Positions 2,127-2,270 of a stretch of 28,194 nucleotides of DNA are shown here, one piece after another (positions within the stretch are counted from its first letter, which is position 1; every line of letters begins with the position of its first letter). Under the pieces are notes generated by a model. The model was not told the DNA's origin. It was given only the letters and a program-made list of their open reading frames with translations, and did no database searches. Source of the DNA: Candidatus Peregrinibacteria bacterium RIFCSPLOWO2_01_FULL_48_20 (GTDB lineage: Bacteria; Patescibacteriota; Gracilibacteria; UBA1369; 2-02-FULL-48-14); the NCBI GenBank assembly GCA_001787475.1, contig MFXB01000065.1, positions 1-28,194 of the forward strand, read 5' to 3'. A program made the translations under genes and the position numbers.

Positions 2127-2155
2127 TAGACAAGTTACTCGAAATTGTATATAAT
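2127..2155 (+). promoter_or_regulatory. Sigma70-type promoter TAGACA-17bp-TATAAT
   Basis: Near-consensus -35 at 2127-2132, perfect -10 at 2150-2155, 17-bp spacer. Confidence 0.75.
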
Positions 2156-2161
2156 CAACAC

Positions 2162-2270
2162 CCATTTGAAAAAAAGTCAAATGGTAAGCGGACCGTAGGT
2201 CTGCTAAGAAAAAGATTTACTTACGGTTGAGAGAGGGCTCTTCATGGCGTGGAGGGGGCCCTCTTTTTTT
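2162..2270 (+). ncRNA. Candidate structured small RNA or attenuator leader, family not recognised
   Basis: Starts at the expected TSS and ends at an intrinsic terminator. Three successive hairpins (2162-2184, 2187-2205, 2232-2264). The only ATG-started ORF before the terminator is 5 codons (MVSGP). Confidence 0.5.
2232..2270 (+). terminator. Rho-independent terminator
   Basis: AGAGGGCTC...GGGCCCTCT GC-rich stem followed by a T run. Confidence 0.8.

Follow-up and report, generated by a model that had tools for sequence, protein, structure and literature searches.

In a Patescibacteria genome (Candidatus Peregrinibacteria bacterium RIFCSPLOWO2_01_FULL_48_20), a short transcription unit without an ORF separates a divergent subtilase gene from one for a proline-rich (Pro-rich) protein. 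The question it raises is whether this unit encodes a regulatory RNA in its own right or merely the leader of the gene that follows. A first-pass annotation of the window, that is, the whole stretch of 28,194 nucleotides analysed here, had left both possibilities standing. Comparison with related genomes points to a real, previously uncatalogued sRNA family (~90 nt) whose predicted regulon is unusually clear.

Structure and conservation of the RNA gene

The promoter of the RNA matches the consensus at 11 of the 12 positions of its −35 and −10 hexamers and, judged from its position, transcription should start near 2160–2162. This near-consensus promoter (TAGACA-17-TATAAT), the hairpin at the predicted start site and the terminator had all been recognized at first reading and are present as described (Table 1); in homologues the two hairpins are kept as P1 and P2. 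Among 23 homologues compared, the −35 box reads T(A/G)GACA and the −10 box TATAAT, TATAAA, TATAGT or TATATT, always separated by 17 nt of variable sequence. The order of elements is promoter, P1 (TTGAC-N5-GTCAA), a variable A/U-rich linker, UACGGUUG, P2 with GGCGUGGAG in its loop, and the U-tract.

Table 1. Features of the RNA gene and predicted target sites within the window
Feature	Position	Strand	Description
Promoter	2120..2155	+	Conserved upstream A-rich/GAC element; −35 TAGACA 2127–2132, 17-nt spacer, −10 TATAAT 2150–2155
sRNA gene body	2160..2270	+	111 nt here; 84–120 nt among homologues
P1, 5′ hairpin	2162..2184	+	Near-invariant core TTGA(C)-N5/7-(G)TCAA at 2166–2180
Hairpin 2	2186..2208	+	One bp shorter than the dispersed REP-like GNA-triloop repeat of which it is a variant; sits in the variable linker of this genome only
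UACGGUUG, second conserved motif	2222..2229	+	Mostly single-stranded among homologues
P2, terminator-type hairpin and U-tract	2232..2270	+	Stem 2232–2242/2254–2264, loop 2243–2253
Loop seed GGCGUGGAG	2246..2254	+	Invariant across all homologues seen; CAU, AU or GU often just 5′
Extended −10-like box TGnTAAAAT	2320..2328	+	Serves the downstream Pro-rich gene; separate from the RNA
Predicted target site, divergent subtilase gene	2074..2080	−	ACGCGCC-ATG; CACGCC-ATG in several relatives
Predicted target site, 581-aa gene adjoining ftsA	6323..6328	−	CACGCC, 4 nt before ATG
Predicted target site, YtxH-like gene	23426..23430	+	ACGCC-ATG; CCACGCC-ATG in G003, G006, G009 and G016 orthologues

Of the family's 27 genomes (Gracilibacteria/Peribacteria-type Patescibacteria), 25 keep promoter, 5′ hairpin and terminator, located between the divergent subtilase gene and, in most cases, the Pro-rich gene. 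Assembly accounts for the two genomes without the element: in G025 a contig ends there, and G018, which is 84% complete, also has no Pro-rich orthologue. The 111-nt unit folds with −41.2 kcal/mol (z = −3.6), a stability reached by none of 200 shuffled sequences. In the alignments 89% of the cells are paired for P1, with compensatory changes at two pairs and some G–U wobbles, and 100% for P2, where G–C to A–U compensation is seen and further stem changes occur in genus g11. Over the entire RNA 95% of the cells pair and three pairs are compensated, a modest degree of covariation within a set of close kin. Because of the G–U pairs and the U-tract, the RNA can be placed on the + strand.

No Rfam family scored above the gathering threshold (Rfam 15; gathering and E-value thresholds). 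Matches were sub-threshold and terminator-like, the best on the element being ctRNA_p42d with 16 bits against a threshold of 50. This agrees with the earlier impression that the RNA is not SRP, 6S, tmRNA or a known riboswitch; tmRNA is encoded separately in the genome. A covariance model found the RNA in 20 of 22 family genomes; it gave only four weak matches, all lacking the seed, in 128 genomes from elsewhere in the order, and had no match in 146 non-family genomes of the class. No other family sampled in the order or class yielded the RNA. Three pattern matches on viral contigs were not scored by the covariance model, nor were those that exist in high-GC non-CPR genomes.

The only coding potential pointed out earlier, MVSGP-stop with its ATG at 2181, is present but not kept among homologues. 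We found no conserved mini-ORF in the homologous RNAs, which speaks against a leader peptide, and saw no conserved small ORF at the homologous loci with cut-offs of 60–70 aa. A cis-antisense RNA (type I antitoxin or ctRNA) finds no support at these cut-offs, and no ORF of ≥80 aa overlaps the unit. The features of a trans-encoded sRNA, i.e. its own promoter, an intrinsic terminator and no conserved ORF, were all found, by sequence and conservation only, and with the conserved hairpins and the missing Rfam match they favour the stand-alone regulatory RNA that had been proposed. P1 may in addition be a DNA operator. Its core does not behave as a multi-site operator (palindrome at 11 sites vs 13 control sites elsewhere in five genomes); a role at a single site is still conceivable.

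The apparent switch

The second hairpin, first placed at 2187–2205, exists here but is missing from homologous RNAs. It belongs to a dispersed repeat, AAGCRRACCC-GAA-GGGTYTGCTAAG, which occurs 10 times in this genome, hairpin 2 counted, and has relatives in G003 and G006. The repeat is a two-hairpin REP-like unit, the second hairpin often resembling GTGGC-GNA-GCCAC; examples in this genome are found in C9, C29, C30, C33, C57, C59 and C63 and in the window at 2186–2208, and 34 GNA-triloop mini-hairpins were counted in the genome in all. As had been suggested, a mutually exclusive helix (2191–2200/2219–2228) forms in the predicted ensemble, in which it and hairpin 2 are each ~50% populated, so two-state folding is real in this genome. 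It is not conserved: the ACCGUA needed for it is found in only one of 25 RNAs examined, that of this genome. Moreover, the helix ends at 2228 and the terminator stem spans 2232–2264; no anti-termination is therefore possible.

A riboswitch or attenuator leader governing read-through into the Pro-rich gene, the second proposal of the first-pass annotation, could draw on this two-state folding and on the position of the RNA upstream of the Pro-rich gene, on the same strand, in most genomes. However, one partner of the switch is a genome-specific repeat and the helix is clear of the terminator. The downstream gene also varies, with a two-gene insert in G002 and a glycosyltransferase-like gene in genera g8 and g11, and has its own −10 box: the TGnTAAAAT element noted earlier does exist, and similar extended −10-like boxes lie 3′ of the terminator in most homologues. 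Since the RNA is not fixed 5′ of one class of gene, and is a 3′ UTR in g11, we rejected this class and find such a leader scarcely credible. The apparent switch is best seen as an accident of this genome, brought about by the inserted repeat.

Two observations concern the downstream region itself. In G002 (L069) ORFs of 83 and 134 aa separate the RNA from the Pro-rich gene; by eye they resemble an AbrB-type antitoxin and a PIN-domain protein. The C-terminal 130 aa of the Pro-rich protein (window 2382–3095) belong to no Pfam family; they are strongly conserved in 59 of 61 genomes of the order, where a distant paralogue is often present.

The terminator loop and the sequence before start codons

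What the earlier reading of the element missed is the invariant loop of P2 and its complement at start codons. The seed GGCGUGGAG has a predicted mean unpaired probability of 0.63–0.97 and a predicted opening cost of 2.3–3.3 kcal/mol. About 15 metagenome copies of the RNA, part of them redundant with the family genomes, were also collected; some of these records have a variant base 5′ of the seed, the core being invariant; in L305, L317, L326 and L338 an A replaces the U at the position adjoining the seed on its 5′ side.

The seed complement is enriched by position and by lineage, and conserved copies of it occur around the translation starts of mRNAs unlinked to the RNA gene. When all 4096 hexamers were ranked in the last 10 nt before ATG for the 577 genes of this genome, with gene starts from a crude in-house caller and the RNA itself not used, CACGCC came first (10 observed vs 0.57 expected) and CCACGC second (9 vs 0.53). 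Before the ATG of 332 genes of other families CACGCC was absent. It is confined to the −12 to −1 bin (11 genes vs 0–3 in other bins) and to the sense orientation (11 against none for GGCGTG), a strict strand bias which argues against a DNA operator. Pairing with the seed at ≤ −14 kcal/mol is predicted for 21 genes between −20 and +3 vs 2 between −60 and −37, and not one of 150 shuffled seeds reached 21 (mean 3.3, maximum 11); the seed also pairs well with early coding windows (12 genes at +40 to +63).

Over this and seven other family genomes, 34 of 44 CCACGCCATG sites are ORF starts, compared with 10% of CCATG sites in general. CGCC-ATG occurs in 23 of 363 syntenic genes in the family and in 1 of 332 outside. 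The raw count of CCACGCCATG against the control CCACGCCATC (164 vs 97 in the family, ~16 self copies included, and 41 vs 73 outside) is partly compositional, and the shift is about threefold. Kin are not independent, and p-values across genomes are therefore overstated, a problem from which the ranking within one genome is free. Complementarity to the seed amounts to 6–8 nt at most sites, U is not enriched opposite the A of the seed, and the sites are more often unpaired than random CACGC (0.63 vs 0.47). Remnants of REP-like hairpins were discounted as their source, a partner arm being present at 4 of 37 only.

Could the RNA be real, with a function of another kind, and CACGCC-AUG nevertheless be a cis signal peculiar to the family and recognized by a protein or by the ribosome, with the loop match due to chance or secondary? 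The match is short, and the RNA family is a single clade, so that the between-family contrast amounts to one evolutionary event; as the seed core is invariant, there is likewise no compensatory change between seed and targets to display. A second terminator with the same loop, 3′ of dnaK in G014, would also sit well with a signal of this kind. However, the two highest-ranking hexamers out of 4096 both correspond to the single invariant loop, motif and RNA stop at the same family limit within our sample, and complementarity continues into the flanks, where C at −2/−3 reaches 45–53% vs a background of 23%. On balance we consider a pure cis signal unlikely. The terminator after dnaK (L173:1501–1588) combines a different stem with an unchanged loop seed (CCUGGCGUGGAGG) and is preceded by a UAACGGUC motif; it was seen in this one genome only and is possibly a second, 3′-UTR-derived copy.

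Genus g11 and the origin of the RNA

In genus g11, the sister of the other sampled genera (two-protein tree, support 98–100), the same promoter and P1 lead into an ORF of 255 aa with an SLH domain, and UACGGUUG and P2 begin 12 nt past its stop codon, that is, in its 3′ UTR. Full-length homologues of this ORF were found only in g11. Either a 3′-UTR-derived sRNA was freed by gene loss or the gene was inserted into the linker; under either origin the seed function persists as a 3′ module, and g11 genomes retain target sites. An SLH ORF between P1 and the 3′ part, in the genus that is sister to all others sampled, might also mean that the element is a relic, a promoter and terminator left behind by loss of the SLH gene and kept as a transcriptional insulator without RNA function. 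But an insulator has no need of an invariant loop, of UACGGUUG or of an intact promoter across ten genera, and the complement of the loop is enriched at start codons, which makes a mere relic highly improbable.

Predicted target genes

About 17–21 of the 577 genes called in this genome qualify as targets, and the regulon is estimated at ~35–45 mRNAs per complete genome, i.e. 3–4% of mRNAs. The following predicted targets recur in different genera: ftsX, ftsA and its neighbour, the genes for YtxH-like, PilC-like, small pilin, PepA and HTH_17 proteins, and the subtilase gene. A seed-like site precedes ftsX in 19 of 26 family genomes vs 1 of 25 outside, and ftsA in at least six family orthologues vs 0 of 12 outside, among the matches listed. 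The 581-aa neighbour of ftsA is predicted to be among the most consistent targets, with CGCC or CACGC before the ATG of 14 of 20 orthologues in the family vs 0 of 16 outside (counted by eye). Its product (window 4573–6318) is membrane-anchored, occurs order-wide and has no Pfam match.

Pfam supports the naming of FtsA within the window and, among the predicted targets, of FtsX, DnaA, D-Ala-D-Ala carboxypeptidase, LytR/CpsA/Psr, SLH proteins, a MIP channel, STAS, M48 peptidase, YtxH-like, HTH_17, type IV N-methyl and T4SS-type pilins, LexA-like, phosphoketolase, PepA and a solute-binding protein. The PilC-like protein is named by its N-terminus only and has no Pfam match. A 45-aa Lys/Ala-rich, histone-like ORF lies directly 3′ of TTCCACGCC in G024 (L197:897–1031) and recalls HctA, the target of the chlamydial sRNA IhtA.

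Translation in the host and a model for the RNA

No Shine–Dalgarno (SD) signal was detected in the genes of this genome. The 16S rRNA of the family still ends in CCUCC or UCUCC (GGACUACCUCC or GGACCAUCUCC in L062–L065, in place of the GGAUCACCUCC of G028), and its anti-SD context is drifting. TAACC is enriched at −15 to −12 before ATG and is a candidate for an SD-independent initiation signal. Since it is just as frequent in those families of the order that have no RNA, TAACC(−13) was dismissed as a target of UACGGUUG. The complement of UACGGUUG shows no enrichment near starts or stops and is not significantly represented in rRNA or tRNA; the motif may have a role in protein binding, processing or auxiliary pairing. 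It is not a convincing partner of h45 (UAUCCGUA, an imperfect match) or substitute for the 16S 3′ end, the tail of which is intact. Pairing of the seed with h24 (UCCACGCY) is equalled by 11 of 100 shuffled seeds, and h24 covaries internally; T-box-like pairing with tRNA 3′ ends gave no convincing match. A mild enrichment of CCTCAC/CTCAC directly upstream of ATG (5 vs 0.24 expected) was seen in other families (L105–L124) and could mark an analogous sRNA with a different seed.

Hfq and ProQ were each found in none of five near-complete family genomes, with positive controls, which removes the Hfq/ProQ-dependent class of sRNAs; RNase E/G was not detected in these genomes either, whereas searches for KhpA/B-type KH domains, for RNase III and for RNase Y were positive.

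We summarize the data in the following model, to which we assign a probability of roughly two in three: the RNA is an Hfq-independent, stand-alone, trans-acting sRNA that represses by seed pairing at start codons. It would be transcribed from a sigma-70-type promoter, protected by its 5′ hairpin and ended by the intrinsic terminator. The G-rich loop seed GGCGUGGAG would pair with (C)CACGCC located 0–7 nt upstream of the start codon in ftsX, ftsA and its neighbour, pilin/PilC-like, SLH/envelope, YtxH-like, PepA, LexA-like and dnaA mRNAs. A duplex of 6–10 bp nucleating just 5′ of the AUG, and often covering it because CAU, AU or GU usually precedes the seed, should block loading of the 30S subunit. 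Translation would thus be lowered without Hfq or ProQ, possibly with help from KhpA/B, and decay by RNase III or RNase Y might follow. Within this model transcription, pairing, the sign of regulation and the helper proteins are predictions from sequence, repression being suggested by the geometry of the sites and by precedent.

The opposite sign has its own attractions. In a lineage without SD signals the RNA might act as a trans-acting initiation guide that replaces SD pairing for a subset of mRNAs, with its loop reading CACGCC beside the AUG and UACGGUUG or P1 making contact with the ribosome or a factor. The sites are limited to the 12 nt before the AUG, with no spread into the coding region, they co-occur with the order-wide TAACC(−13) (6 of 17 vs 41 of 556), the second invariant motif has no mRNA complement and the promoter is strong and near-consensus. 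Yet numerous sites lie directly against the AUG, and most seeds also cover it with their extension (CAU/AU/GU), which would block fMet-tRNA; the motif precedes only 3–4% of genes, few of them for ribosomal proteins; and neither RNA motif is significantly complementary to 16S rRNA (11 of 100 shuffled seeds do as well). We know of no precedent for a guide-type initiation RNA. An activating role is less likely than repression but conceivable, as the sites lie in the zone equivalent to the SD and co-occur with TAACC, and we rate a guide of this type as very unlikely.

Patescibacteria have tiny genomes and are thought to be almost devoid of regulation, and a literature search of incomplete coverage found no publication on sRNA regulons in this group. 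The RNA looks like a global translation regulator of dozens of genes for division, pili and the envelope. If so, a single RNA switch in a host-dependent, ultra-small bacterium could lower division and attachment functions jointly, for example, to speculate, between free and host-attached states. It would also illustrate how an sRNA locates start codons without an SD sequence, namely by mRNAs gaining a dedicated motif. The pair of seed and motif can be tested by reporter assays or in vitro translation without culture of the organism, and the start-proximal k-mer test could reveal such RNAs in other uncultured lineages.

Comparison with known systems

RepG of Helicobacter pylori, a species not known to have Hfq, consists of two stem-loops. 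As in the RNA described here, the seed of RepG is in the terminator loop; it pairs with a 5′ leader, and that stem-loop constitutes the regulatory activity (PMC8295292). The RepG loop is C/U-rich and binds a G-repeat of one operon (PMC8295292), whereas ours is rich in G, and the C-rich sites lie immediately beside the start codons of numerous genes; there is no sequence or Rfam similarity between the two. IhtA of Chlamydia trachomatis, another host-dependent bacterium with a reduced genome, occludes the AUG of hctA by pairing of a G/C-rich loop over 6–7 nt (PMC4355289). The pairing loop of IhtA is the first of three (loop 1); it clamps the AUG from both sides, and two targets have been validated (PMC4355289). 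Our seed, in contrast, lies in the terminator loop, is predicted to pair mostly upstream of the AUG and has predicted targets by the dozen. EcpR1 of Sinorhizobium meliloti is likewise independent of Hfq and uses a conserved GC-rich loop seed against cell-cycle targets, including the start region of dnaA (PMC4414408). However, its seed is C-rich (UCCGCCGCAUCU) and located in the 5′ hairpin, and RNase E is required for dnaA (PMC4414408). Here the seed is G-rich, and five near-complete family genomes yielded no RNase E/G.

Staphylococcus aureus RNAIII and RsaE, B. subtilis RoxS and 6C RNA block initiation on many mRNAs through C-rich loops without Hfq, exploiting the existing G-rich SD sequence. 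The situation in the Patescibacteria family differs in that there is no SD to attack; its predicted target mRNAs carry a dedicated C-rich motif, found only in the RNA-bearing family, where it seems to have arisen gene by gene. There is finally a resemblance to 3′-UTR-derived sRNAs, since the terminator that bears the seed forms, in g11, the 3′ UTR of the mRNA for an SLH protein. The difference is that the other genera have no ORF, the 5′ and 3′ parts being joined by a short A/U-rich linker, and that neither Hfq nor RNase E was found in the host (five near-complete genomes).
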